Below, in pieces: positions 1,771 through 60,246 of a stretch of DNA of 64,000 nucleotides. A program made the translations under genes and the position numbers. The notes under the pieces were generated by a model. The model was not told where the DNA came from and did no database searches. It was given only the letters and a program-made list of their open reading frames with translations. Every line of letters starts with the position of its first letter. The first letter of the stretch is position 1. Source of the DNA: Octopus vulgaris (lineage: Eukaryota); NCBI GenBank assembly GCA_951406725.2, contig OX597820.1, positions 106,144,001-106,208,000 on the forward strand, read 5' to 3'.

Positions 1771-1803
1771 TAATAACAACAACAACAACAATCATAATAA
1801 AAT

Positions 1804-3820
1804 GACAGTACTTGGTAGATAAAGCAATTAAAAGTATGAAGATAGGGAAAGCCCCTGGCCCATCAGAAATCACTGCACAGATGCTTAAAATATCTGGCAG
1901 TGTTGGCTATAGCCTAGTCACCCGTATAGTTAACCAGGTGATACACGAAGGAGTCATTCTCAATGACTGGTGTAGCAGCACTATAGTCAAGTGCTACAAA
2001 GATAAAGGTGATGCTTTAGATACAAATAATTACAGAGGAATCAAGTTGTTGGATCAGGTAATGTTGGATCACGGAGAGGGTCATGGCCCAACTAATTAGG
2101 GAGAGAGTCAGTTTAGATGAAAGGCAGTTTGGGTTCATGCCAGGGATGCCATATTCCTGGTAAGACAGCTGCAGGAGAAATACCTAGCCAAAGATAAACC
2201 TCTGTACCTGGCTTTCATTGACATGGAGAAAGCCTTTGACAGGGTTCCCTGATCCCTTATCTGGTGGTCAATGAGGAAACTAGGGATAGAAGAGTGGTTA
2301 GTGAGAGCTGTGCAAGCCATGTACAGAGATGCTGTAAGTAAGGTGAGGGTTGGCAATGAGTACAGTGAAGAATTCTGGGTAGAGGTAGGAGTCCACCAAG
2401 GTTCAGTCCTCAGCCCCCTCCTATTTATCATAGTTCTCCAGGCAATAATGGAGGAATTCAAGACAGGATGCCCCTGGGAGCTCCTCTATGCTGACAACCT
2501 TGCTCTAGTTGCTGAGTCACTATCAGAACTCGAGGAGAAGTTTCAGGTGTGGAAGCAAGGATTAGAATCGAAGGGCCTTAGAGTCAACCTAGCTAAAACC
2601 AAAGTCCTAATGAGTAGGAAGGTAGGAAAACCACAAATCCCTTCAGGTAGATGGCCGTGCTCGATCTGTAGAAAAGGTGTAGGTAGAAACTCTATAAGAT
2701 GTACCTAGTGTAAGCTATGGACACATAAGAGGTGCAGCAATATCAAAGGAAGGCTAACTGGGAAGATAGTTTTTGTATGTGGCAGATGCTCAGGGGCAAT
2801 AAACACTGGAAATGTGCAGAGAAAAACTTCTGCCACATTCCAGGGAGAAAAACTAGAAGTAGTTGATAGCTTCCATTACCTATGTGACCAAGTCAGTAGC
2901 GGGGGAGGGTGTGCTGAAAGTGTAGCTGCTAGAATAAGAATAACCTGGGCAAAGTTTAGAGAGCTCTTACCTCTGCTGGTGGCAAAGGGCCTCTTACTCA
3001 GAGTAAAAGGTAGACTGTATGACGCATGTGTACGAACAGCCATGCTACATGGCAGTGAAACATGGGCTGTGACTGCTGAGGACATGCATAAGTTCACAAG
3101 GAATGAAGCCAGTATGATCCGATGGATGTGTAATGTCAGTTTGCATACTCGACAGAGCGTATGTACCTTGAGAGAAAAGTTGGGCCTAAGAAGCATCAGT
3201 TGTGGTGTGCAAGAGTGATGACTGTGCTGGTATGGTCATATGGTGAGAATGGATGAGGATAGCTGTGTGAAAAAGTTCCACACACTAGTGGTTGAGGGAA
3301 CCTGTGGAAGAGGTAGACCCAGGAAAACCTGGGATGAGGTGTTCAAGCATGACCTTCGAACATTAGGCCTCACTGAGGCAATGACTAGTGACCAAGACCA
3401 ATGGAAGTATGCTGTGCTTTAGAAGACCTGGCAAGCCAAGTGGGACCATAAACTCGTGGCTTATGCCAGGGGTGTAACCAGCCCATTTATACATACCTTT
3501 CCTTCATTGGACTCTAAACTCTGCTTGCAAAGACCTGTTGAGACAAGTGAAATCGAAATCAAATTCGATGACTGGCTCCTGTGCAGGTGGCATGTAAAAA
3601 ACACCATTTGAGTGCGGCCATTGCCAGTACTGCCTGACTGGCCCTTGTGTGGGTGGCATGTAAAAGCACTCACTACACTCTTGGAGTGGTTGGCATTAGG
3701 AAGGGCATCAGCTGTAGAATATCTGCCAGATCAGATTGGAGCCTAGTGCAGCCATCTGGTTCGCCAGCCCTCAGTCAAATCGTCCAATCCATGCTAGCAT
3801 GGAAAGCGGACATTAAACAT
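1804..3820 (+). mobile_element. RTE-clade LINE, 5'-truncated, pseudogenised reverse transcriptase plus 3' UTR
   Basis: ORF fragments 1812-3422: GKAPGPSEI, NYRGIKLL, MEKAFDRV, GVHQGSVLSPLLF, LLYADNL (YADD site), C-terminal GRGRPRKTW. Confidence 0.95.
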
Positions 3821-6524: not shown

Positions 6525-7000
6525 ATAAGTGAAATCAAAATCGAAATCGGAATCGAAATTGAACCAATCCTATGACTGGCATCCGGCAGATGCCAGGACC
6601 CCTGGACTGGTGGTACATAAAAAGCACTATCTGAATCGTGGTCGATGCCAGCGCCGCCTCAACTGGCTTCCGTGCCGGTGGCACGTAAAATGCACCATCC
6701 AAACCGTGGCCGATGCCAGTGCCGCCTCGACTGGCTTCCATGCCGGTGGCACGTAAAATGCACCAATGCGACCATGGCCGTTGCCAGCCTCGCCTGGCAT
6801 CTGTGCAGGTGGCATGTAAAAAGCACCCACTACACTCACGGAGTGGTTGGCGTTAGGAAGGGCATCCAGCTGTAGAAACATTGCCAGATAAGACTGGAGC
6901 CTGGTGCAGCCTTCTGGCTTCCCAGACCCCGGTCGAACTGTCCAACCCATGCTAGCATGGAGAACGGACGTTAAACGATGATGATGATGATGATGATGAT
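6525..7000 (+). mobile_element. RTE LINE 3' UTR-only copy with ~4 tandem ~68-bp units and (GAT)n tail
   Basis: Matches the 3' UTR of 1804-3820 and ends CATGCTAGCATGGAGAACGGACGTTAAAC(GAT)n. Confidence 0.9.
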
Positions 7001-12235: not shown

Positions 12236-12465
12236 ATTTCTTTATTGCCCACAAGGGGCTAAACATAGAGGGGACAAACAAGAACAGACAAATGGATTAA
12301 GTTGATTACATCGAACCTAGTGCATAACTGGTACTTAATTTATGGAGCCCAAAAGGATGAAAGGCAAAGTCGACCTTGGTGGAATTTGAACTCAAAACAT
12401 AGTGGCAGACGAAAAACTGCTAAGCATTTCGTCCAGCATGCTAACATTTCTGCCAGCTCGCCACC
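12236..12465 (-). mobile_element. SINE family A
   Basis: Close reverse complement of 36697-36922. Confidence 0.9.
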
Positions 12466-13080
12466 TTCATTGTGAACAGCTTTCTAGTTCTTCTATCCAA
12501 GTTCTGCAGCTTGATTTATGTCCATTTCAGAAAGGGAACAGATTATCTCAATACTGGCACAGCTCATGTATTTATGGCTTTAATGACGTTCATCCATTAA
12601 AATCTTTTGAGACTATTCTTAATTCTCCTCTTGTAACTACGAAGTGACTTTTACCCTCATTTCTCTTGCCATTATCCTATTGTCTTATAGCACTCTTAAG
12701 TTTTTGTATCCCTCATCACTCCACCACACTCTAAGGATGTTGTTTTGAGGTAGTTTTATGCCATCAGAATTTACCTTCTTCCCTCTCTTTAAAAATAGCA
12801 TTGCACACTTATCTACCCTAAATTGCATACTAATTTCTTTACTGAATACTCTTACTGTTAAGATCAGAGAATCTAGGTCTGTCTTATGTTTTGTATATAG
12901 CTTGAGATCATCTATATAAAGTAGGTGATTTATTCCCATCTTGATTTTAGTAAACTCATAGGCAGGCCTGGAAAATTCCTCTGTGCATTTTCCTGTTATC
13001 TAGCAATTCATTTGCACATGTCAGTTCTGCTTCCCACACTCTCACTGCTTTCTCCAAAAAGTTGTTTATCTTCTCATTGA

Positions 13081-13652
13081 ATTATTATTATTATTATTGA
13101 GTGAGAAAGCAGTGCATGCCATCAAAGTGACACTGGGGTGAAATATATGAAACCCAGTATACCCATCATGACTACCCGTCTGATAAGGGTACACTAGACA
13201 CATGCATCACAACCATATGTGCATGACATGGTGATCTCATATCAAGATAAACAGCATATGACCTTGCAGGTGGGGCCCAGTTAAAATTTTCTTCTGGTCG
13301 AGTAACCCATCCTGCTCAAAAGGTCCTTGAATAAGGGTTGTTTAAGAATGTTGAATGAAACACCCATGTTTCCAGAGATTAATTATTCAAACGCCAAAGA
13401 ATCCCTCTCAACATATGGCTATGATGCTCCCCTACTGCTTCTGCTCGAGATCAGAGATGCACATATCGTCAGCCACTAAGGGACATGCTCAATTAGTTAA
13501 GGTCAAACAACTGACAGGCAAATCTGTGGTATTGAGCAGAATATTTGCTGTAGCCCATCTTTTATACCAAGACCAAACAATATACATGATAACACTTTCA
13601 ATCAGTTAAGATCAGAAGCCATGAGAGCCACTGCCTGGTACTGCATCAGGGC

Positions 13653-13695
<43 letters not shown>

Positions 13696-13885
13696 ATTGC
13701 CTTTGCAGAGCTTCTAACGCTGGAGATGTACTATGGTGTTAGCTGTTCACTACCAGTGAACTAAGGTAACACCCATTATTTTTCGAGCACCTTCCAGAGT
13801 ATTCGATTGGGTCCAAGCAATGCTGTTTTCTGCAAGTGCTCCACCCTTATTGCGGCCCCTATTTGTTCCATGTACTTCTCAAGAT
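13081..13885 (-). mobile_element. R4/Dong-clade element 3' end (ORF C-terminus, long 3' UTR, (TAA)n tail)
   Basis: YLEKYMEQIGAAIRVEHLQKTALLGPNRILWKVLEK* followed by the UTR and a (TAA)n tract. Embedded in ATT microsatellites, as expected for Dong-like elements. Confidence 0.8.
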
Positions 13886-16560: not shown

Positions 16561-17772
16561 ACCTATACCTATGTTGATAAAATTTCCAAAAATAACATAT
16601 ATTTATTGAAAATATACAAATGAGAAATTTGTGTTATCTAATTTTATTATAAGGTAATAAATATTTTTCTTTTAAAAATTAGTATTCATTTAAATGTTTT
16701 GTAATAAGTACCAAGAAAATTAATAAAAGTTGATGGGGTTGGGGGAATGGGTATACTCTTAGCTGAGAAATGGGTTGATAATGTAATCAAGATAGTCAGA
16801 GTCTGTGATAGAATACTAAAGCTTAGATTAGTGCTGCAACATTATCTTGGCCTATGCCTCTCAGCCAGGGCTACCTGATGAACAGAAAGATCTATTTTAT
16901 GACACCTTCTTGCAGACTACCTTGTCAATGAATGACAGGGACTTTCTCTTTGTGGATGGCGACTTCAATGCGCATGTTGGACATCATCTGGGGAGCTTCC
17001 ATGGTGTGCATAGTGGCAATGGATTTGGTTCCTGCAATGAGGAGAGAACCAGGTTGCTGGAGTTCTGTGATGCAAATGATCTTATGATCTTTAATACTAA
17101 CTTCAGGAAACCTACTAGTCACCTGTTGACCTACCAGTCTGGTGGGTACACTAGTCAGATTGACTACATTCTCACCAGGAAATGAGAAAGATGGCTACTT
17201 ATAAATGCCAAAACTTTCCCAAGTGAAGAATGTACCCCACAACATAGGTTAGTAGTTAGCAACTTCAGGATCAGGGCTAAATGCTGCCCAGAAGACAACC
17301 AATATGGAAAAGAAGGGTCTGGAAGCTTAAGGACCCTCTGAATGGATAGAGATTTAGAGATGTATACTTGAAGATTTTGACAAAAAAGAGGAGGGTATAG
17401 CATCACATAATGTGGTGGATAACTGGAAGTTCCTACAGGACAACCTGTTGAGGGCTACAAACCAGATCTGTTGCTGGTGCAGAGTCCCCTCTTGACCCAA
17501 GGTGACATGGTGGAGAAACAATGTAGATGACAGAGCCATTAGGGAAAAGAAACAGGCATGGAAGGACTAGAAGTGTGGTGGTAGCAGGGAACTGTATCAG
17601 ATAGCCAGAAGGGAAGGTAGGAGACAGGTTTACTTACTCAGAGGGGAAGCAGATAAGAAATTTGCCAATGTTCTGTGTTGTGAGGACCAAAGACTTGAGG
17701 TGTTTTGAATTGCAAGACAGTGTGTGAGAGAAAATTACGATGTCATCGGAGAGAAATATGTTTACATGGATG

Positions 17773-18845
17773 GGGGAAAACCACAAGTAGTTGATAGCTT
17801 CTGTTACTGAGGTGACCAAAACAGTAGCAGGGATGGATGCCCTGAGAGTTTAGCTATTAGAACAAGAATAGCCTGAGCAAAGTTCAGAGGGCTCTGCTGG
17901 TAACAAAGGGCCTCTCGCTCAGAGTAAAAGGTAGACTGTATGACGCATGTGTGCGAATAGCCATGCTACATGGCAGTGAAACATGGCAGTGAAATGTAAC
18001 TGCTGAAGACATGCAAGGAATGAAGTTAGTATATTCTGCTAGATGTGTAATGTCAGTGTGCATACACGACAGAGTGTAAACGTCCTGAGAGAAAAGTTGG
18101 ACATAAGAAGCATCAGATGTAGTGTGCAAGAGAGACAACTGCATTGGTATGGTCATGTGTTGCATATGGATGAGGACAGCTGTGTGAAAAAGTGTCACAT
18201 CTTAGTAGTAGAGGGAGCCTGTGGAAGAAGTAGCCCCAGGAAGACCTGGGATGGGGTGGTGAAGCATGACCTTTGAATGTTGGGCATCACGGAGGCAATG
18301 ACAAGCGACCGAGATCTTTGGAGATATGCTGTGCTTGAGAAGACCTGGCAAGCCAAGTGAGACTGTAACTGTGGCCTATGCCAGTGCAGCATAACCAGCC
18401 CATTTAAGAGTACCCTTCAATCATTTGGCAATAAACTGTGCTTGCAAAGACCTGTTGAATCAAGTGAAGTTATTTTCATGGCCGATGACAGTACCTCCTG
18501 ATTGACACCCATGCCAGTGGCACGTAAAATGCACCATTTGAGCATGGTCGATGCCAGTGCCAGCTGACTGGTCCTGTATCAGTGGCACATAAAAAGCACC
18601 ATTCGAGTATGGTCATTGCCAGTCCCACCTGACTGGCTCCCATGCCAGTGGCACATAAAAAACACCATTCAAGTGTGGAGTGGTTGGCATTAGGAAGGGC
18701 ATCCAGCTGTAGAAACGTTGCTAAATCAGATTGGAGCCTGATGCAGCCTTCTGTCTTGCCAGCCCTCAGTCAAACTCCAACCCATGCCAGCATGGAAAGC
18801 GAACGTTAAACGACAACGATGATGATGATGATGATGATGATGATG
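17773..18845 (+). mobile_element. 5'-truncated RTE copy nested inside the same-family element
   Basis: Abrupt jump from the post-endonuclease linker to the C-terminal VVDSFCY region, then its own 3' UTR and (GAT)n tail. The host reading frame resumes at GATGATGCAAAGAGAGAG. Confidence 0.75.
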
Positions 18846-20667
18846 CAAAGAGAGAGAGAGTTGGAAATGTCACTATGAAAGGTTGCTAAATGAAGAGAAT
18901 GAATGGGAGAAAGAAAGTATGCCACATATTGACCCAACAGAGGGGACAGCCATCCGAATTGACTGTACCTTGGTAGATAAAGCAGATATAGGTATGAAGA
19001 CAGCGAAAGCCTCCAGCCCATCAAGAATTACTGCTGAGATACTTAAAATATCTGGTGGTGTAGGCTATATTCTAGTGATCTGTATAGTTAATCAAGTGAT
19101 ACAATCATACCCAATGATTGGTGTAGCAGCACAAACTGCTACAAAGTAAAGGTGACATCTTAGATAAAAATAATTACAGAGGCATCAAATTGTGGGATCA
19201 GGTGATGAAAGTCATGGAGAGGATCATAGTCCAACTAATTAGGGTGATAGTTTAGATGAGATGCACTTTGGGTTTGTGCCAAAGAGAAGCACCACTGATG
19301 CTATATTTCTGGTAAGACAGCTGCAAGAAAAATTCCTATCCAAAGATAAACCTCTGTATTTGGCTTTTCTTGACTTGGAGAAAGCCTTTGACAGGGACCC
19401 CCCACTAATCCCTTATTTGGTGGTCAATGTGGAAACTAGGGATAGCTGAGTGGTTGATGAGAGCTGTACAAGTCATGTACAGGGATGCTGTGAGTAAGGT
19501 GAGGGTTGGCAATGAGTAGAGCAAAGAATTCTGGGTAGAAGTAGGGGTTCACCAAGGATCAATCCTCTGATCTTTCTTGTTTATCATAGTTCGCCAAGCA
19601 ATAACAGAGGAATTCAAGACAAGCCACCCCTGGGAGCTCCTCTATGCTGATGACCTTGCTCTAATAGCTGAGTCACTACCAGAACTAGAGAAGTTTCAGG
19701 TGTAGAAGCAAGGTCTACAATTGAGTTAACCTAGCAAAAACCAAAGTTTTAGTAAATAATAAGGCGGACAAATCACAAATCCCTTCAGGGCCATACTCGA
19801 TCTGTAGAAAAGGCATAGGTAGAAAGTCCACAAGATGTATTTTGTGTAAGCTATGGACACATAAGGTTAACTGGGAAGATAGTTTTTGTGTGTGGCAGAT
19901 GCACAGGTGCAATAAACACCAAAAATGTACAGAAAATAGATTCCATCACACACCAAGGAAAAAGATTAGATTTAGTTGATAGCTTCTGTCACCTAGGTGA
20001 CCAAGTCAGTAGTGAGGGTAGATACTCTGAGAGTGTAGTTGCTAGAATAAGAATTGGTTAGGCAAATGTCAGAGAGCTCCTACCTCTGCTATAACAAAGA
20101 GCCTCTTGCTTAGAGTGAAAGGTAGACTGTTTGATGCGTGTGTGCAAACAGCCATGGTACACAGCAGTGAAACATGGGCTGTGACTGCTGACAACATACA
20201 TAAGCTTGAAAGAAATGAAGCGGGTATGCTCTAATGGATGTGTAATGTCAGTGTGCATACATGACAGAGTGTAAGTGCCCCGAGAGAGAAGTTGGACATA
20301 AGACACATCAGATGTGGTGGGCAAAAAAGAGGACTGCACTGGTATGGTCATGTGATGCGTATGGATGAGGACAGCTGTGTGAAGAAGTGACACCCTCTAA
20401 CAGTGGAGGGAACTTGTGGAAGAGGTAGACCCAGGAAGATATGGGATGAGGTGGTGAAGCACAACCTTCGAATATTGGGCCTCACAGAGTCAATGACAAG
20501 CAACCAAGACCTTCATGCTTGAGTAGACCTTGCAAGCCAAGTGAGATCATAGTCATGGCTGATGCCAGTGTTGCATAACTGGCTCGTTTAAAAGCACCTG
20601 TCAATCGTTGAGCGATATGGTGTGCTTGTGAAGACCTGTTGAACCAAGCAAAATCATACTTGTCGCT

Positions 20668-20990
20668 GATGCCAGTGCTGCCTGACTGGCACCTGTACCA
20701 GTGGCACATAAAAAACAGCATTTAAGTGGGGTCGATGCCAGTGCCACCTGACTGGCACCCATGCCAGTGGCATGTAAAAAGCACCATTCAAGCATGGCCA
20801 ATACCAGTGCCACCTGACTGGTACCTGTGCCAGTGGCACATAAAATGCACAATTCAAGCATGGCTGATGCCAGTTCCGCTTGACTGGTACCTGTGCCAGT
20901 GGCATGTAAAAAGCACCATGTGAGCATGGCTGATGCCAGTGCTGCCTGACTGGCTCTTGTGCTGGTGACACATAAAAAGTACTCACTACA
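20668..20990 (+). repeat. Five tandem 66-bp units in the RTE 3' UTR
   Basis: Unit starts at 20668, 20734, 20800, 20866 and 20932. Confidence 0.95.
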
Positions 20991-21484
20991 CTCTCAGAGT
21001 GGTTGGTGTTAGGAAGGGCATCCAGTGGTAGCAAATACTTGCCAAATCAGATTAGGGCCTGGTGCAGCCTCCCAGCTTGCCATTTCTCAGTCAAACCATC
21101 CAGTGCATGTCAGCATGGAAAGCGGACATTAAATGACAATAATGATGATGATGAAATGATAATTATTGTATGTATGCCATATTTTCTGATGTAACCCATG
21201 ATGATAAAAGTATTCTTCTAAAGTTAACCAACATACAACAGCTAAACCTTTAGTGTATTATATAATAAAAAAAAAAGGCCTCAACAATTCCTAGTAGATA
21301 TTCAAATAAAACAAATTCTAAATTGCTATATTTTATTTAGCTGTGAGGAATGGTAAGCAAATCTTTTCTTGGAAAGTAACCTGCAGACAACAAGCAGATT
21401 GGTAAAGCAGATTTATCATTTATTCTATATCTTATACATGTTGACATAAAAGCGATGATGATGATGATGATGATGATGATGATA

Positions 21485-27209: not shown

Positions 27210-27880
27210 TACCTTTCAGTGGATCTAAAATGTGAGTAACCCTGTAGCTCCTAGCAATAAAAAAACCTCTTCTACTCTGGCCCCTTTTCCCATACTTTAA
27301 CTGTCTTTCTGATCACAGCCTTCAACAAGTGTAGACGGCTTCCTATCCCTTTCTTAAGCCGTTGTTCTCACACGTTCAAAATAATTTTTCCTTTGCTCGG
27401 CTTAACAGCCCTCAACGTTTGTATTACTGTTATTCTACTTGTCCTGTCGTTTACTGTTTTTATTTGTATTTTTACTGTCTTGTATTGTTTTTACTGTCCT
27501 GTTTTTGTTACCACTTTTACCCCTCCGCAAAAACTCAAATTTTATTTAATTTGCTTTGCGGGAAGGACTGTTTCACCAAAGTTGTGTCTTGCCTTTACCT
27601 TCGAAACATGGAGTAGATGAAACAGAGACGGCTGAAGAAGGGCAATTTCCCTTGTGTTGTATGGCTTTTACTCTGTTTTCTCGTTGTTTGAAAAAATGTC
27701 CGTTTCCATGGTTCTGTTTTTATGTTTTCGCTTCTCATTGTGTCCGACGTTTTTTTGGTGTCCTGTACCCATATATGCATGTATATATACATATAGATGT
27801 AGGTACGTACATATATGTATGTATATATGCATATGTTTTATTTATTATTTTGTTATTATATATATATATATATATATGTG
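27210..27880 (+). repeat. Unclassified interspersed repeat ending GTCCTGTACCCATATATGCATG + (TA)n
   Basis: The same terminus occurs at ~57695-57720 and ~58375-58400. Confidence 0.55.
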
Positions 27881-28256: not shown

Positions 28257-28288
<32 letters not shown>

Positions 28289-28295
28289 TATATAA

Positions 28296-28696
28296 TATAG
28301 GATAAAATTTTTCGAAAAAAATTTTATCGATGGCCAGCATATTAAAAAATACCTTCAAAGGTTAAATATATAAACAATATATAAACAACGGCAAAAGAAA
28401 AAATTTTAATGCCAAATATGCCGAAAAAGGACAAATTGTCAATAACCATATAATTTATCAGGGTATGAGTAAGTATTTCATTTATGTCTTACGTATTTAT
28501 CGCTGATGAGGAGAAAATTCTTATGAATTAACTCTGAAATCGGCACCGATACGGTAATAACGGAATTTTTTAGAAGTTTCTGTTGGTTTACTTCATGACA
28601 CGTATTTATAGTGAGAAATTATATGGTTATTGACAATTTGTCCTTTTTCGGCATATTTGGCATTAGAAGTTTTTCTTTTGCCGTTGTTTATAAATT

Positions 28697-28706
<10 letters not shown>
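28296..28706 (+). mobile_element. (TA)n-bounded non-coding element: ~91-bp inverted repeats enclosing a hammerhead ribozyme (Penelope-like)
   Basis: Arms 28366-28456 and 28616-28706 differ at about 3 positions. Palindrome GATAAAATTTTTCGAAAAAAATTTTATC at 28301-28328. Confidence 0.75.
28497..28557 (+). ncRNA. Type I hammerhead ribozyme, intact core
   Basis: TTATCG-CTGATGA-GGAG..AATTC TTAT GAATT..CTCT-GAAA-TCGG CA CCGA-TA|CGGTAA. All three stems pair. Predicted cut after 28551 (AUA). Confidence 0.85.
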
Positions 28707-28738
<32 letters not shown>

Positions 28739-28837
28739 TATGCTATATATATATATATATTCATTCATTTAGAGATAGTAGGCCCCTTCATCTCACCATA
28801 TAAAAAAGAATTTTTATTTTAAATACACATGCTTCAT

Positions 28838-29067: not shown

Positions 29068-30860
29068 TCAGGTGATGAAAGTTACAGAGAGAGTCATAGC
29101 CCAACTAATTAGGGAGAGAGTTAGTCCAGATGAGATTCAGTTTGGTTTTGTGTCAGGTAGAAGCACCACTGATGCTATATTTCTGGTAAGGCAGCAACAG
29201 GAGAAATACATAGCCAAAGATAAATCTTTGTACTTGGCTTTTGTTGACTTGGAGAAAGCCTTTGACAGGGTCGCCCGATCCCTTATGTGGTGGTCAATGC
29301 AGAAATTGGGGGTAGATGAGTGACAAGTAAAAACTGTAAAAGCCCTGTACAGCGATGCTGTCAGTAAGGTGAGGGTTGGCAACAAGTATAGTGAAGAATT
29401 CCGAGCAGAAGTAGGGATTCACCAAGGATCAGTCCTCAGCCTCCTCTTATTCATTATAGTCCTCCGGGCAATAGCAGAGGAATTCAAGACAGGCTGTCCC
29501 TGGGAGCTCCTCTATGCTGATGACCTTTCACTAATTGCTGAGCCACAGCCAGAACTAGAGACGAAGTTTAGGGTGTGGAGCAAGGTCTAGAATCGAAGGA
29601 CCTTAGGGTTAACCTAGCAAAAACTAAAGTCTTACTAAGTAGAAAGGCTGTCAAATCACAATCCCCTTCAGGTAGATGGCCCTGCTCAATCTGTAGAAAA
29701 GGTGTGGGTAGAAACTCCATACGATGTACCCGGTGTAAGCTATAGACTCATAAAAGGTGCAGCAATATCAAAGGAAGGTTAACCAGGAAATTAGTTTTTG
29801 TGTGTGGCAGATGCTCGGGAGCAATAAACACTGAAAATGTGCAGAGAACAACTTCTGCCACATTCCAGGGAGAAACACTAGAAGTAGTTGATAGCTTCCG
29901 TTACCTAGGTGACCAAGTCTGTAGGCGGTGTTGATGCTCTGATAGCATGGCTGCTAGAATAAGAATAGCCTTGGCAAAGTTCATGAAGCTCCTACCTCTG
30001 CTGGCAACTAAAGGCCTCTCGTTCAGAGTGAAAGGTAGACTGTATAATGCATGTGTGTGAACTACCATGCTACACGGCAGAGAAACATGGGCCATGAATG
30101 CTGAGGACATGCATAGGCTTGAAAGAAATGAAGCTAGCATGATCCGCTGGATATGTAATGTCAGTGTGCGTACACAACAGAGTGTAAGTGTCCTGAGAGA
30201 AATGTTGGGCATAAGAAGCATTAAATGTGGTGTGCAGGAGAGGTGACTGCACTGGTATGGTCATGTGTTATGTATGGATGAAGACAGCTGCATGAGAAAG
30301 TGCCACTCCCTAACTGTGGAAGGAACCTATGGAAGAGGTAGACCAAGGGAGACCTGGGATGAGGTGGTGAAGCATGACCTTCAAACATTGGGCCTCACAG
30401 AGACAATGACAGGAGACCGGGACCTTTGGAAATATGCTGTGATTGAGAAGACCTGGCAACTAAAGTGAGATCACAGCCACACATGTCTGGCCCTGTTAAG
30501 AATACCCCTGATGCATCAAGCAATATAATACACTTGAGAAGACCTGTTGAGTCAAGTAAAACCAATATCATAGCTGTGGCCAGTTCCCCCTGAAAGCACC
30601 ATCCAAACGTGGTCGATGCCAGGTATACCTGGCTAGCTCCCGCGCCAGGCCCATCTGATTGGCTCTTGTGCCGGTGGCACGTAAAAAGTATCCACTAAAC
30701 TCTTGGAGTGGTTGGCTTTAAGGAAGGCATCCAGCTGTAGAAACATTGCCAGAACAGACTGGGAGCTTGGTGCAACCGCTGGCTCTCCAGACCTCAGTCA
30801 AACAGTCCAACCCATGCTAGCTTGTAAAACAGATGTTAAATGATGTTGATGATGATGATC
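29068..30860 (+). mobile_element. RTE LINE, 5'-truncated pseudogene
   Basis: QFGFVSGRSTTDAIF, LEKAFDRV, GIHQGSVLS, LLYADDL, GRGRPRETW, 3' UTR and (GAT)n tail. Confidence 0.95.
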
Positions 30861-34704: not shown

Positions 34705-35058
34705 AAATAACAAAAGACGGATCATGGTTCACTATTGTTGTTTCAGATGTGTTTTTTTTCTTTTCTGATGAATAGAAGTATTGCCTCATGTGAAAAAATC
34801 GTTTTCATCAGGTGTATACATGTAAGAATTAAATATTTTGAACATCTCAACACCAAAGCAATATCGACCATGGATTTTTGATCGGCAGAGTTGAAAATAG
34901 TACTTTTGCTTTGGAATTGCAATGTTCCAAATGCGTAATTCTTACATGTATTCACCTGATGAAAATGGTTTTAACACATGATGTAATAGTTCTATTCATC
35001 AATAAAAGACAAGTCTTAGAAAAGCTGTTGTGAACCACAATCGATCTGTTGTTATTTG
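34705..35058. repeat. Foldback or MITE-like element with long imperfect inverted arms
   Basis: For example TGATGAATAGAA..TTTTCATCAGGTGTATACATGTAAGAATTA versus TAATTCTTACATGTATTCACCTGATGAAAA..TTCTATTCATCA. Confidence 0.75.
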
Positions 35059-39959: not shown

Positions 39960-40870
39960 AGGATGGGAAAGGCAATCATTGTCCATGATGAGAGGTAGTT
40001 TACTTCACTGGTGGAAATGTGGGGTTGAATCAATGTAACATGTGGGTGAAGAGCACAAAATACACAGCATTTGCAGGACTCATTTTCACTGAGGTGGACA
40101 GGTTTTCTTGAGAACCTCATATCCTGGTCCTTGTCATCTTTTCTGTTAGGCTCAACACCTGAAGGTAATTTTGTACTACTTCATCCCACATCTTTCTAAA
40201 TCTCCCTCTTCTACAGTTTCCATCCACTTTAAACATAAGCAATTGATATTTCTTTATACAACGGTCGTCATTCATATGCATCATATGGCCATACCAGCAC
40301 AGCCTTCTCTCTCTTGCACACTACAGCTGATTTCTCTTATGTCTACTTTTTCTCTCAACACATTTACTCTTTCTCACACATGCACACTAGAGTTGCACAT
40401 CCATTGAGGCATACTAACTTCATTCCTCTCTAGTCTTCATATGTTCTCTGCATTCAAAGCCCATGTAGCATAGCTGTTTGTACACAAGTATCATACAATC
40501 TGCCTTTGACTCTGAGAGAGAGAGAGACCTTTTGTAACCAACAGAGGTAATAGCTTTCTGAACTTTTGCTATCCTATTCTTATTCTAGCAACTATACTTT
40601 CAGAACATTCTTCTCCATTGCTAATTAGGTCACCTCAATAACAGAGACTATATACATCAAAGGAATCTCCTGGGCATTTGAGAAAATCTAATTCCTGTGT
40701 ACCCTTAGTGTTTATTGTTTCTGAATATATGCCACACAAAAAGGCTATTTTCTCTGTTAACCTTCCTGTGATTCCACTGCACCTTTCATATGCCCATAGC
40801 TTGCACTGGGTACATGGTATGGAATTCTTTCCATCACCTTTCTTACATATCAAGTAGGGTCATCAGCATA
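39960..40870 (-). mobile_element. Old RTE LINE fragment (main family)
   Basis: Minus strand YADD at 40859-40870 joined by a deletion to ICKKGDGKNSIPCTQCKLW and the C-terminal region. Confidence 0.8.
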
Positions 40871-48560: not shown

Positions 48561-48614
48561 GTTTACATTTGCTGAAAATTTCTTATCTGGAATTCAGCAG
48601 TGCAGTTCAGTGTT

Positions 48615-50490
48615 ATGAAAGCCACTGAGAGGGTTATTGCTGGGTAATTACAGAGTTGACTTATATGGGATGCAGTTTGGTTTCATGCCTGGGAGAAGTA
48701 CTACCGATGCTCTCTTTATAGTTTGGCAACTACAGGAGAAGGATTTAGCAAAAAGTAAACCACTGTACTTGGTTTTGGCAATCTGGAGAAAGCCTTATTT
48801 GGTGGTTGTTATGGAAACTACAAGTAGATGAATGGGTTGTGAGAGCCATTCAAGCCATGTACAGGGTTGCTGTCAGCATGTGAGAGCTAATAAGTACAGT
48901 GATGAATTTAGTGTGGAGTTCATTAGTGTTCAGCTATTTATCACAGTCCTCTAGGTCATAATGGTGGAATTTAAGATTGGTTGCCCATAGGAACTCCTCT
49001 ATGCTAACCTTGTTCTCATAGCTTTAATAGAATTAGAAATGAAATGTCAGGTGTGGAAGTAAAACATAGAATCAAAACGTTTTAAACTTAGTTTCTAGTT
49101 AGCAGGAAAAGAGATGGGACACTAATCTCTTCAGGTAAATGGCCCTGTCCTATATGTAGACAAGGTGTATGTAGAAATTCTACATGGCATCTTCAGTGTA
49201 GACTATGGACACATATGAGATACAGTGGAATCACAGAAAGGTTAATGGAGAAAGTAGAATTTGTTTGTGGCAGATGTGCAGAAGCAATAAATAATAATAA
49301 CATATGAGAAATAGATGTTCTGAAATTCTCAGGAGGCTCTCTGGAAGTAGTAGACAGTTTCTGTTACCTAGGTGACCGAATTAGCATTGGAGGGGTATGC
49401 TTTGAAAATATAGTTGTTAGAATAAGAACTGGTTGGAGAAAGATCAGAGAACTTTTTCCTTTGGTGGCAACAAAAAGCTTCTCTCTCAAAGTGAAAGACA
49501 CATTATACAATACCTGTATAAAAACAGTAAGCCAGATGGTTATGAAATTTGGACTGTGAATGCAGAGGGTATGCAAAGACTATAAAGGAATGAAACTAGC
49601 ATGCTTCAATGGAAGTGCAATGTCAGTGTGCATGTATGACAAAATACAAATGTGCTGAGTGAAAAATTGGGCATAAGCAGATGTGGTGAACAGAAGAGAA
49701 GATTGCACTGGTATGGTCATGTGATCCAGATGGCTCAAAGAAATGCCAATGTACAAAGAAGTGCCAATGTCTTCCTGGGGAAGAGGAAGACGTGGGATGA
49801 AGTAGTGAAGACCAACCACGAGATGTTGAACCTCTCTGAGGAGATGATGTGGTACTGAGGAGATGAATGGCAATATGCTGTGCTTAAGAAGACTCTTCTA
49901 TCTCAGCAGATGGAACTCGTCTTCTAACCCTCATCTTCTATCAAGCTTCTATGTTACCTTATTTCCTTCCTCCACCTCCCACCCACTGAACTGATATTCT
50001 CTGCATCCAACTCATTCCCTATCTCTATTCATCTATCACACTATTCTCACTTAGAATCACTTATCTACACACCCAACTTTTCTACTCTTCTATCCTATTC
50101 TGTCTCTCATTTGTAGTTTGATCTTACCCCCCTCTCTCTCTCTCTCTCTTTCTTTCTTTTCAGGTGGGCACACCATGAGTTAACTTCTTCAGCAAGACAC
50201 CTACTCCTGTCCCTCTATTCTAGTTTCTTACTCATTCTATATCCTACTCACTTTAGGGATCTTGTCTTGCAGTTGCTTGGTAACCTCACTGGTGCTGGTG
50301 CCATGTCAAAAGTACCCAGTACACTTTGTTAAGCAATTGGCATTAGGAAAGGCATTTAGTAGTAGAAACCCTGCCAAAGCAGACACTGGAATTCAGTACA
50401 GCCCTCTGACTCATTTGTTCTTGCCAAAACACACAGTTCATGCCAGGACGGAGCTATGGATGTTAAATGATGATGATGATGATGATGATG
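48615..50490 (+). mobile_element. Old RTE LINE pseudogene with pyrimidine-rich 3' UTR
   Basis: MQFGFMPGRSTTDALF, RLHWYGHV, RKTWDEVVK. Terminal GGATGTTAAAT(GAT)n. Confidence 0.85.
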
Positions 50491-51116: not shown

Positions 51117-52166
51117 TTAATAGATAAAGTACCAGTCAAGTACTGGGATTAGTTCTTCTATCTCAACCTCTCTTTTCCTCCATCCCCACTCTGTCTGTCT
51201 GTCTGTTTTCTGTTTGTCTATCTCTGTCTGTCCATTTCTCTCTCTCTCTTTTTTCTCTCCCCTTCCCCTCTCACTCACCTCCTATCTCTCTCTCTGAATC
51301 AGCTATGTTGCACAGTGAAAAGGGTCTTATGGAACCACACACAACAGCCTTTTCTGCCACATCAGAAAAGAACAGTGTGAGGAGCTGCTATTCTCATGGA
51401 AAACCTGATACACAACTAGAGATATCATAGGATGGGCTAATGTGCAAAACAATACAAAACTGGAAATAAAGAAGAAAAAAGAAAAGAAGAAATGTAGAAG
51501 TAAGTATTAAGAGTAAAATATTAATTATTTATTGATTCTACACACACTCATATTAGTTATTTGTCTTTTTAATATCAGAGGTATCTATCATGAGGTATTC
51601 ACCCTTATTGACTCCATTGGGTAAAAATAACTGTCATAGAATTATTAGTGGGGCAAATAAAAATGACTATGACTAGAAAATGAACCTAAGTTGCTGAATC
51701 AGTTCATTGGTAAGTCACCCTCAGGCTACCCAATGACTAAGGAAGAAGAGGCTAAGATTTTAATGAGAAAATCTTCATTAAGAAAGTAAATACTTCTACA
51801 CTTTCAGATAATTTTAGTTTGCTTTCAGTATGAAGTCTGGAGTCATAGCAAATCTAGGCCTCTACTTTTTGTCATGGTACACCAACTATTCATTCCATTT
51901 TACAAGAACTTAACTCTTTTGACATCAACATGCCCAAGACTGTTCCAGATTCTATGAGACAAACTTCCTGTTTTAAATGATGATAACTTTTATCAAATTT
52001 CTTGGTGCTTATTTAAAATGCAGAAACCAATACTAATTTTCCCAAGAAAATATTTATTTCCTTAAAATGAAATAAAATAAAACAATTTAAAAACATGAAA
52101 ACAAAATTACTTTCTGTGTTGATTTTATATTATAGAAGTTTTCACACACATGCGCATGCACACACA

Positions 52167-52219
<53 letters not shown>

Positions 52220-52305
52220 GCGCGCATGTGGGCACACACATATATGCATGTATGAATGTATGTATGTATGTATGTATGTATGTATGTATGTATGTATGTA
52301 TGTGT

Positions 52306-52336
<31 letters not shown>

Positions 52337-52340
<4 letters not shown>

Positions 52341-53579
52341 GGTTGGACAAAATAATGGAAACACCTTAAAATTTCAAACAAATTTATTTTAATATGGTAT
52401 AGGATCGCCTTTGGCTGTAATTACAGCTTGAATTCTATGAGGTATGGACATGTACAAAGTTTGAATTGTTTCCAAAGGAATTTTTGTCGATTCTTCAGCT
52501 ATAACAGTCTCCAGTTCTTGTAGTAATGATGGTGGAGGATATTGACTCCTTACCTGTTTTTCTAAAATGCACCATAAATATTCAATTATATTGAGATCTG
52601 GGGACTGTGGTGGCCAGATAAGATGTTCAACTTAACTAGAATGTTCCTTGTGCCATTCAGTAACAACTTTAGCTGTGTGAATTGGTGCTTTATCATCCTG
52701 AAAGATTGCATTTCCCTCCAGAAACAGTTCTGCAACAATAGGATGAATTTGATCAGATAAAATGCTCAAATAGTCTTGAATATTAATTCTGCCATGAAGA
52801 GAAACCATTGGGCTGACCCAGATAATCACAGATCCTCTACCATGTTTAACAGTTGGAAGAAGATAGTCTGGGTCAAATGCTTCTTTTGGCTGTCTCCACA
52901 TGTATACTCAGCAGGTGGTCAGAAACAAGGCAAATGATGACTTGTCCGAGAAAATAACATTCTTCCACTGCCCTAGGGACCAATTCTGTAGGTTTTTACT
53001 CCACTCCAAATGCTTTGCAACGTTTGTTTTTAAAAGTAGTGGTTTTCTGATTTCAGCCCTCCTGTGAAATCTGACTTTGTGCAGCTCCTGACAAACAGTT
53101 TTTGTGGAAACTGGGTTCTCGAGGTGATCATTAAGCTCTGCAGTAATTTTGGGAGCTGTACTTTTGTGATTCTTTCTAACAATTCGCATAAGAGTCCAAC
53201 GGTCCCTATCTGAAAGTTTTAGTTTTGTTCCAGAGTTTTGTTTTCACGAAGAGGTTTTTTCCTCTTTCTCAAAGGCTGTCATTACTTTCAAGACAGTACT
53301 TCTTGATACACCAAGCATTTTGGTTGTTTTTGTTACACTAGTACCTGCCATACGAACACCAATAATTTGACCTCTTTGAAAGTTCAATAGATCTGTCATT
53401 TTAATGAATTGTAATTACCTTTTTCTGATGATATCTGAAAGAAACAGCAATTTTAGCAAAACATATTGAGCAACACTAATAATAAATCAAAAAACAAAAT
53501 AATAAACAAGCTTTTGACGATTTTATAGGTATTTCAAAATTATGATGCTAGGTGTTTCCATTATTTTGTCCAAACCCTG
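52337..53579 (-). mobile_element. Full-length Tc1-family DNA transposon
   Basis: TIRs CAGAGGTTGGACAAAATAATGGAAACACCT / AGGTGTTTCCATTATTTTGTCCAAACCCTG with TA TSDs. Confidence 0.95.
52389..53399 (-). pseudogene. Tc1 (DD34E-type) transposase, disrupted
   Basis: MTDLLNFQRGQIIGVRMAG..GVSRSTV (HTH), VIFSDKSSF, TVKHGRGSV, FQDDKAPIH, WPPQSPDLNIIEYLW, AVITAKGDPIPY*. Broken into several ORFs. Confidence 0.9.
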
Positions 53580-53612
53580 TATATATGTACATATAGCAAA
53601 ACAGGAAAGTGG

Positions 53613-53761
53613 AAATTTTTTGGTATTATTCTCCATTGCACATGTTTCATTTGCTAGTAGGAATTACAAAGATTTACATGTTAGATAGACATGTGAATCT
53701 TTGTAATTCCTGTTAGAAAATGAAACACATGTAATGGTGAATAAATAATACCAAAAAATTT
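53613..53761. repeat. Foldback with ~70-bp arms and a 7-nt loop, each arm resembling a hammerhead 3' half
   Basis: Arms meet at ACATGT-TAGATAG-ACATGT and read GAAACACATGTA (+) and GAAACATGTGCA (-). Confidence 0.8.
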
Positions 53762-53886
53762 AGACAATAACTCCACAATATTTCCATAATACAGCAGCAA
53801 TTAAAGGCACTTATTGATTGTAATAATGGAATAAACAGATGTGCTTCAAGCGGAAACAGCTGGGATTGACCCTAACTACTTATATA

Positions 53887-53966
<80 letters not shown>

Positions 53967-53989
53967 GTACTCCCCTGCCTCCTTTGCCT

Positions 53990-57609: not shown

Positions 57610-58393
57610 TTGTCCTGTATTCCATTTTTTCTCTTGTTGTTTGTGTATTTAATTCATTTGTTTTCGTATTTCATGTTGTTTACTGTTGGTTACGTCCTGT
57701 ACCCATATATGCATGGATATATATATATATATTATTTATATTATTATTTAATTAAACACCACGCATCAATTTCCAATTAAGTTAATCTTAATCTTTTTGA
57801 TGTGACTCTACTCCTTACTGTTTTCTCCCCTATCCTTCTCTGATTCCCTTTTTCTCCCCTTCACTGTTTTCTATCTATCTCTCACTCTCCCCCTCTTTCT
57901 CATTTTCTCTCTCTTGCTGATCACATGTGACCATTGTCCATCTTTCTTTTCCTCACATGACCATCTTTCTTTTCCTTTGTGGACATCCTAAGGACTGAAC
58001 GTCTTCTATCTCTCTTCTATCTTTTCTCCTTCCAAAGAAGATATTTCTCTCAGTGTTCACTATTTCCCCCTCATTCTGGTCTAACGACCCTCTATGTTCG
58101 TTTTCATTTGGTTTCCTTGTACGTCTCCACTGTCGTGTTTTTGTTCCCAACTTTGACACTCCATAAATCCAAAATTTTATTTTGGTATTTATGGGAGCAG
58201 CTGTCTTTGAAGACTCATATTATCATTGATTGCTCGACATGAGGAGTAGAAAGACATCCAACAACTGATGAAGATTCGTTGTGTATTACTTGTCCTATTT
58301 TCCATTTTATTCTCTCACTGTTTGCGTATTTAACTCATTTGTTTTTGTATTTCATGTTGTTTACTGTTGGTGATGTCCTGTACCCATATATGC

Positions 58394-58435
<42 letters not shown>
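57610..58435 (+). repeat. Two tandem copies (one partial) of the GTCCTGTACCCATATATGCATG-(TA)n repeat family
   Basis: 57610-57720 and 58289-58400 are closely similar to each other and related to 27210-27880. Confidence 0.7.
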
Positions 58436-58443
<8 letters not shown>

Positions 58444-59864: not shown

Positions 59865-60246
59865 CAGATTCTAATAGAGGGCTCAGCAGCTCTCTGATCT
59901 GAGATTGTATTTGCCAGCTTTTTATAGCTATAAGCTGTCTTTCTAGAATCTTTGGTAAAACTGTTCAGTGGAACCATAGCTTTCAGATTTTCTCAGTCCA
60001 GAACAACATAATGTATCTCCATAAAAGAAAAAGTGAGAGCATAAAAAATTATCAATAGCTTTGGGAATATGGCTTGACCAATCAGCACAAGCTGACTTAT
60101 TTTTGTTGATGCGGCGTTCAAAGGAAGTATGCAAGTTTTTCTACTGAACGGTTTTGAAGAAGATTCTAGAAATGTGGTTTATTGCTATAAAAACCTGGCA
60201 AATACAACCTCAGATCAGAGAGCCACTGAGCACCCTATGAAAATCT
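59865..60246. repeat. Foldback or MITE-like element with ~110-bp imperfect arms
   Basis: GCTCTCTGATCTGAGATTGTATTTGCCAG..TTTCTAGAATCTT versus AAGATTCTAGAAA..CTGGCAAATACAACCTCAGATCAGAGAGC. Confidence 0.8.

Follow-up and report, generated by a model that had tools for sequence, protein, structure and literature searches.

A type I hammerhead motif between near-perfect inverted repeats in Octopus vulgaris: a probable remnant of a Penelope-like element

What kind of insertion places a hammerhead ribozyme motif in the loop of a long inverted repeat, and would such a motif be expected to work there? The question is raised by a locus on contig OX597820.1 of the Octopus vulgaris assembly GCA_951406725.2. 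We analyzed 64,000 nucleotides around it (positions 106,144,001 to 106,208,000 of the forward strand), referred to here as the window, and all coordinates below count from its first letter. An initial annotation had read the locus as a recent Penelope insertion with an inverted, truncated copy on its 5′ side, whose transcript would form a long double-stranded RNA stem opened by self-cleavage. The analysis described here argues with good probability for a dead, 5′-truncated stub of an endonuclease-bearing, (TA)n-targeting Penelope-like element (PLE), and it does not support the opening of the stem.

Layout of the insert and its surroundings

The insert consists of an inverted, 5′-truncated copy joined head-to-head to a direct copy, as seen from the arms of the inverted repeat and the strand of the hammerhead, which also sets the orientation assigned to the direct copy (Table 1). 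In an ungapped comparison 88 of the 91 arm positions are complementary, so that the approximately three mismatches first reported are exactly three (28379/28693, 28403/28669, and 28406/28666), and the loop estimated at about 160 nt measures 159 nt. A repeat finder draws the arms somewhat longer, at 28363-28460 and 28612-28709 (98 nt, 95%). For the 420-nt region the predicted folding energy is -174.5 kcal/mol (z = -19.4), a stability that none of 100 shuffles reached. The arm pair has the top identity among the non-microsatellite repeat pairs in the self-BLAST list of the window, where the remaining pairs lie mostly at 63-89% identity and two reach 91-94%. No other copy of the element was found within the 64-kb window by blastn at word size 7. 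A-to-I editing was considered as the origin of the arm differences and dropped as unsupported, only one of the three being an A/G difference.

Both arms end in TA-like bases. The (TA)n sequence reported on both sides is present but asymmetric about the arms: the right array adjoins its arm, whereas some 66 nt separate the left array from the left arm. The intervening extension has no match in the rest of the window or in the loop or flanks of the insert. Its length exceeds the 30-40 nt quoted for PLE tails, and it may be host DNA; its closeness to a TA array mildly favors a tail, given that only 2.5% of the window falls within 80 nt to the right of a (TA)≥6 array, although the clustering of TA arrays in this region speaks against giving this much weight. 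The 28-bp palindrome noticed earlier at the outer end of the extension is there, albeit in imperfect form (12-bp arms around 4 nt, 24/28 by blastn). A Helitron 3′ hairpin was rejected for this palindrome, the expected spacer and CTRR end being missing. No target-site duplication beyond chance words of 5-6 nt was seen between the (TA)n sequences on the two sides, and the (TA)n bias of such elements is described as hiding these duplications (PMC8557442).

Table 1. Positions of the features discussed in the text, counted from the first letter of the window
Feature	Position	Strand	Remark
(TA)n array, left	28257-28299	no strand	likely half of the target microsatellite, or adjoining host array
One-sided extension outside left arm, ~66 nt	28300-28365	-	candidate PLE tail or host DNA
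AT-rich palindrome, imperfect	28301-28328	no strand	outer end of the extension; hairpin
Left arm	28366-28456	-	inverted shorter copy of the element 3′ end; stops before the hammerhead
Direct copy, 5′-truncated, ~250 nt, non-coding	28457-28706	+	5′ junction at ~28457-28461
Competing rod fold (predicted)	28492-28553	+	28502-28507 pairs with 28539-28544, and 28492-28497 with 28548-28553; catalytic core buried
Type I hammerhead	28497-28557	+	single site in the window, both strands (own type I descriptor)
Hammerhead stem I	28497-28502/28552-28557	+	6 bp
Hammerhead core CUGAUGA	28503-28509	+	
Hammerhead stem II	28510-28513/28532-28535 plus 28516-28520/28525-28529	+	4+5 bp, two-part
Hammerhead GAAA	28536-28539	+	
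Hammerhead stem III, palindromic	28539-28550	+	AUCGG-CA-CCGAU
AUA triplet	28549-28551	+	predicted cut between 28551 and 28552
Right arm	28616-28706	+	3′ terminus of the direct copy; merges into (TA)n
(TA)n array, right	28700-28760	no strand	target microsatellite; adjoins the right arm
Relatives of the LINE copy at 29068-30860	1800-3817, 17772-18844, 18957-21166, 40122-40864, 48607-49733		

The window around the insert holds many microsatellites and many decayed repeats. Pfam was run on 260 of its ORFs (42 of the 54 with at least 100 aa and 218 of 311 complexity-filtered ORFs of 50-99 aa), and the clear matches were to LINE-type reverse transcriptase, AP endonuclease, PHD, and Tc1/DDE fragments, with all others weak and below cut-off. 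Neither a GIY-YIG domain nor a host gene appeared among these 260 ORFs, and the reverse transcriptase matches lie outside the element. A crude scan of the window for PLE reverse transcriptase and endonuclease motifs gave nothing convincing, and a sigma-70 scan, irrelevant to an animal, stayed at chance level. With no ORF for a telomerase-like reverse transcriptase and GIY-YIG endonuclease in or near it, the insert itself is not an autonomous endonuclease-bearing PLE.

Several other repeats of the window were recorded alongside. Decayed LINE copies with a reverse transcriptase and a PHD-like segment, at 63-78% mutual identity (29068-30860 on the plus strand and its relatives in Table 1), are presumably RTE-like, and at LINE 3′ ends a 65-68 nt unit forms arrays of 3-5 copies (6609-6795, 18477-18678, and 20668-20979). 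A second, different non-LTR element fragment bearing a reverse transcriptase, with stops and frameshifts, occupies 12400-13700 on the minus strand. For a reverse transcriptase fragment of the window, the 120 matches listed include four that are named by species, two from Octopus bimaculoides (64-66%) and two from Hydractinia (60-63%). A Tc1/mariner-type transposase remnant lies between (CA)n and (TG)n arrays at 52148-53968 on the minus strand, and the sole named relative among the 11 matches to the transposase fragment is from Octopus sinensis (75%). Two older, MITE-like inverted-repeat elements are found at 59866-60246 (108-nt arms, 81%) and 34761-35006 (101-nt arms, 82%); the type I descriptor detected no hammerhead in either.

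An older repeat family is represented at 27480-27870 (plus strand), with relatives at ~57610-57741 and ~58100-58440. Its 3′ end runs into TA-rich repeats, and a 22-nt block at that end is common to the three copies. The copy near 27.6 kb contains GAAAC (~27602), then CTGAAGA (27632), then a short hairpin. The same order, with GAAAC preceding CTGATGA, occurs at two Naiad 3′ ends in the supplement of Craig 2021, which by file order belong to octopus. Decay or permutation of a hammerhead could explain this copy, which the type I descriptor did not recognize.

The hammerhead motif and its predicted folds

The report of a complete hammerhead in the loop holds for the core, the helices, and the AUA site. 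The conserved CUGANGA, GAAA, and NUH elements are present in type I order, and three helices (6, 4+5, and 4 bp) are able to form with every pair valid. The pairing first given for stem III, TCGG with CCGA, fails in a single strand, where it would close a 2-nt loop and is impossible intramolecularly. Within one strand the palindromic stem III is reduced to 4 bp with a 4-nt loop at a predicted -1.3 kcal/mol, as against -12.3 kcal/mol between two strands. The motif is close to the 3′ end of the element: the cut site lies 149 nt from the (TA)n array and the hammerhead about 200-220 nt from the element 3′ end, with a 5′ flank that is 55% U and a 3′ flank that is 74% A+U.

The occurrence of this hammerhead is far beyond chance. 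At medium stringency the descriptor returned no site in either 400 block-shuffled windows or 20,000 shuffled loops, and at loose stringency it returned 29 and 2, respectively. Rfam matched nothing anywhere in the window at the gathering score, and at E ≤ 10 no hammerhead family was among the 18 matches between 28200 and 28800. The Rfam miss counts against the assignment, which is made here by motif and helices; a library score is distinct from the defining chemistry. A weak tandem similarity, opening with an exact 10-nt repeat, links 28491-28599 to 28600-28700. An old internal duplication with a second, decayed hammerhead at 28600-28700 was entertained for it and discarded after the score was matched by 28 to 536 of 2000 shuffles, depending on the scoring.

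Folding calculations place a competing rod below the active structure. All energies are Turner 2004 values, which leave the core and its tertiary contacts outside the model. In ViennaRNA the hammerhead fold of the 76-nt segment 28490-28565 lies 6.9 kcal/mol above the rod, and the difference is about 10 kcal/mol in context. When the core and helix layout were kept and pairs and loops permuted, the mean gap was 1.9 kcal/mol, and gaps of at least 6.9 kcal/mol arose in 14-24 of 1000 controls (four replicate runs, one energy model). This result is a warning about activity, not proof. A symmetric double-hammerhead dimer is predicted at -31.5 kcal/mol versus -43.4 to -45.4 kcal/mol for the best dimer fold, so that a dimer model is backed by the palindrome and the literature and not by the folding energy. 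For a minimal PLE hammerhead, monomer cleavage was undetectable and dimer cleavage low (PMC4209133), and the hammerhead of an anole Poseidon element was cleaved only with the protein of the element and was dispensable for insertion in vitro (PMC11167929). Efficient cleavage by the single copy appears doubtful from the modeled folds. A cleavage assay on 28490-28565 alone might fail even with a genuine motif because of the dimer-type stem III, the rod, and the weak relatives.

Were the motif to cut, the consequence would differ from the one first proposed. The predicted cut falls within the loop and the two halves remain paired, so that cleavage would nick the hairpin while the stem stays shut. 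The products cofold at -163.8 kcal/mol, compared with -38.2 and -28.1 kcal/mol separately, and the idea that self-cleavage opens the double-stranded stem is not supported by these values.

Known systems and rival explanations

The layout is already known in print and is not a new device. According to PMC8557442, PLEs show strong 5′ truncation, an adjacent inverted 5′-truncated copy, and a one-ended tail of 30-40 bp; hammerheads lie close to the 3′ end, and Hydra and Naiad elements, among them families from octopus, target (TA)n. Head-to-head inverted pseudo-LTRs (pLTRs), one of them bearing a tail, appear in PMC3846280. The tail has been tied to reverse transcription beginning at two internal positions, with both target strands cut and extended (PMC11167929), and PMC8969392 lists the same layout features as routine for curators. 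Most hammerhead motifs of this kind are single-copy, probably from truncated PLEs, and a palindromic helix III is the published mark of PLE hammerheads that act as dimers (PMC4209133). The O. vulgaris repeat paper counts 190 PLE families making up 6.83% of the genome, of which 31 are given as recently active (PMC13282606). The match to the text and Fig. 2 of PMC8557442 and to PMC3846280 supports the original suggestion of a Penelope insertion with an inverted truncated copy on its 5′ side. Membership in the PLEs, read from the layout, is most likely; against it, the searches described below yielded no sequence link to a PLE coding region.

The insert can be set beside several described groups. 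Hydra-clade PLEs (Penelope-13_HM, Hydra-1_Obim; PMC8557442) share the (TA)n target and a type I hammerhead near the 3′ end, and Penelope-13_HM bears a 5′-truncated inverted copy. In File S2, stem III is a palindrome around a centre of 1-3 nt in all 26 Hydra rows, as is the case here, and the extra base before GAA in 19 of the 26 belongs to a parse that also fits the octopus motif. Stem III starts with AC in 26 of 26 rows (3-4 bp) but with AU here (5 bp). From the start of the hammerhead entry to the consensus 3′ end the distance is 87-425 nt in 25 Hydra rows (our own subtraction from Files S1 and S2, in which the Penelope-18 row and the minus-strand row are 5′-side copies) and about 220 nt here. 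Unlike Hydra-clade PLEs, the insert has an inverted copy that ends short of the hammerhead and no ORF by which to place it by clade, and its sequence is unlike the 3′ end of Hydra-1_Obim, as judged by eye and motif search. Neptune and Penelope/Poseidon elements (PMC3846280, PMC11167929) offer head-to-head inverted pLTRs around truncated copies, a one-sided tail delimited by two internal sites where reverse transcription begins (PMC11167929), an AT-rich target, and a pLTR hammerhead. In contrast to their 30-40 nt, the extension here, if it is a tail, has about 66 nt, and no target-site duplication is visible.

The metazoan PLE hammerheads of Cervera and de la Pena 2014 (PMC4209133) resemble the octopus motif in the CUGANGA and GAAA core, palindromic helix III, long helix II, U-rich 5′ flank, mostly single-copy occurrence, and expected activity as low-activity dimers, and the U-rich 5′ and AU-rich 3′ flanks agree with the consensus in the supplement of that study. 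In the octopus motif helix III is longer than in minimal hammerheads, with 4 bp possible intramolecularly, helix II has at its base G-U, or else G-C and one additional base on either side, and a strong competing rod is predicted. Cephalopod Naiad PLEs share the (TA)n target and a tandem or inverted layout with a tail, but PMC8557442 describes Naiads as being without canonical hammerheads and the insert carries one. Searches for the family itself were negative. Seven short motifs of the element were compared with the supplement of Craig 2021, where 70-nt line breaks can hide matches; six had none, and the match of the seventh, to the 5′ end of an oyster Naiad, was taken as chance. No credible match to short motifs was found in the supplement of the O. 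vulgaris repeat paper, which holds no library, or in the searched files of that of Cervera 2014. Full-text literature searches, covering few subscription papers, turned up no account of the family, and none of cephalopod hammerheads apart from PMC8557442. GTDB genomes gave 0 matches to an exact 23-nt pattern, and phages and plasmids gave nothing beyond matches of 24-33 nt at E of about 0.1, which are not credible.

Other explanations differ in what they make of the hammerhead and of the inverted layout. An unlikely reading takes the insert as a solo or truncated monomer of a non-LTR retrozyme, inserted with inversion by PLE machinery. Such monomers of 220-400 nt are likewise non-coding and low in GC and carry a type I hammerhead (PMC7229834), which the ~250 nt here would suit, and a 2026 preprint (10.64898/2026.07.22.740005) derives retrozymes from PLE pLTRs, so that the two readings overlap. 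The window, however, holds a single hammerhead and no tandem array, the layout is inverted, and the helices are not canonical: retrozymes have 1-2 bp in helix III and 4 bp in helix II (PMC4209133, PMC7229834), as against the 5-bp palindrome and extended helix II found here. The weak similarity between the two parts of the direct copy would recall a retrozyme, but it is not robust to shuffling, as noted above. It is still less probable that the locus is a MITE, in which case the arms would be the 91-bp terminal inverted repeats of a non-autonomous DNA transposon with a TA target and the hammerhead would be present by accident. The 340-nt length, long near-perfect arms with TA at the ends of both, and the presence in the window of a Tc1-type transposase remnant and two older inverted-repeat elements comparable in length would all fit a MITE. 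That reading leaves the hammerhead unexplained when the loop shuffles exclude chance, and the two other inverted-repeat elements carry none; the (TA)n arrays are asymmetric and a second copy is absent in 64 kb.

We give little credence to a kept regulatory unit, in which a transcribed hairpin would be opened or processed by self-cleavage. The fold is very stable, the core is intact, and rotifer PLE copies give small RNAs (PMC3846280), but a cut would leave the halves paired, the predicted fold buries the core, the ORFs scanned in the window revealed no host gene, and an integration by-product accounts fully for the layout. The least credible explanation is an assembly fold-back artefact or a chance pattern. 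The region is AT-rich and flanked by microsatellites, and assemblies are known to struggle with complex PLE insertions (PMC8557442). Against an artefact, the arms carry 3 differences where a folded-back read would be expected to yield none beyond sequencing errors; against chance, the hammerhead far exceeds expectation.

Proposed origin, age, and significance

If the insert is a PLE stub, published PLE biology suggests how it could have formed. A full-length PLE elsewhere would have provided the reverse transcriptase and GIY-YIG endonuclease, and both strands of a (TA)n tract would have been cut and extended. The first cDNA, of about 250 nt, would include the hammerhead, and the second, of about 160 nt, would have begun further 3′ and so included the tail. 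Both presumably stopped early, after which the truncated 5′ ends were joined head-to-head. The inverted repeat would then be a by-product of integration and the hammerhead a passenger from the pseudo-LTR of the parent, where it probably cleaves a tandem precursor RNA, either as a dimer or aided by the protein of the element. At this locus the motif is probably silent; read-through RNA, if made, would form a 91-bp duplex in which a cut in the loop leaves a nick without opening it.

An arm divergence of 3.3% (95% CI 0.7-9.3%), read with a calibration in which a JC distance of 0.09 corresponds to 25 million years (PMC13282606), suggests that the insertion occurred roughly 5 million years ago, within a range of about 1-13 million years, assuming that the arms were identical at insertion. 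The description of the insertion as recent thus stands in a relative sense, by comparison of the arms with most other repeat pairs: it appears young relative to the window and is not necessarily polymorphic.

The value of the locus is modest. It offers a clean and compact case of a PLE head-to-head integration product, and it exhibits a hammerhead variant that is missed by Rfam. The locus may also reveal a pair of alternative 3′ ends, near 28700 for the direct copy and near 28300 for the inverted copy, and these would mark the two sites at which reverse transcription starts in an octopod family. What PLE hammerheads do is still regarded as open (PMC8557442, PMC11167929), and a motif with a 5-bp palindrome and a predicted lock is a usable test substrate for that question. 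Prior knowledge is left unchanged by the locus, and the remaining interest lies in the predicted core-burying rod, as a conserved lock versus decay. On the basis of the modeled folds, we consider it improbable that the hammerhead of the parent family has a built-in lock, with the AUCGG start of stem III pairing with the CUGAU of the core to hold the ribozyme inactive until it is remodeled by a second copy or by the protein of the element. If this were true, with the rod conserved by compensatory changes, it would represent a sequence-encoded switch accounting for protein-assisted PLE cleavage, and head-to-head stubs would constitute a genome-wide supply of long double-stranded RNA for ADAR and Dicer in a cephalopod.
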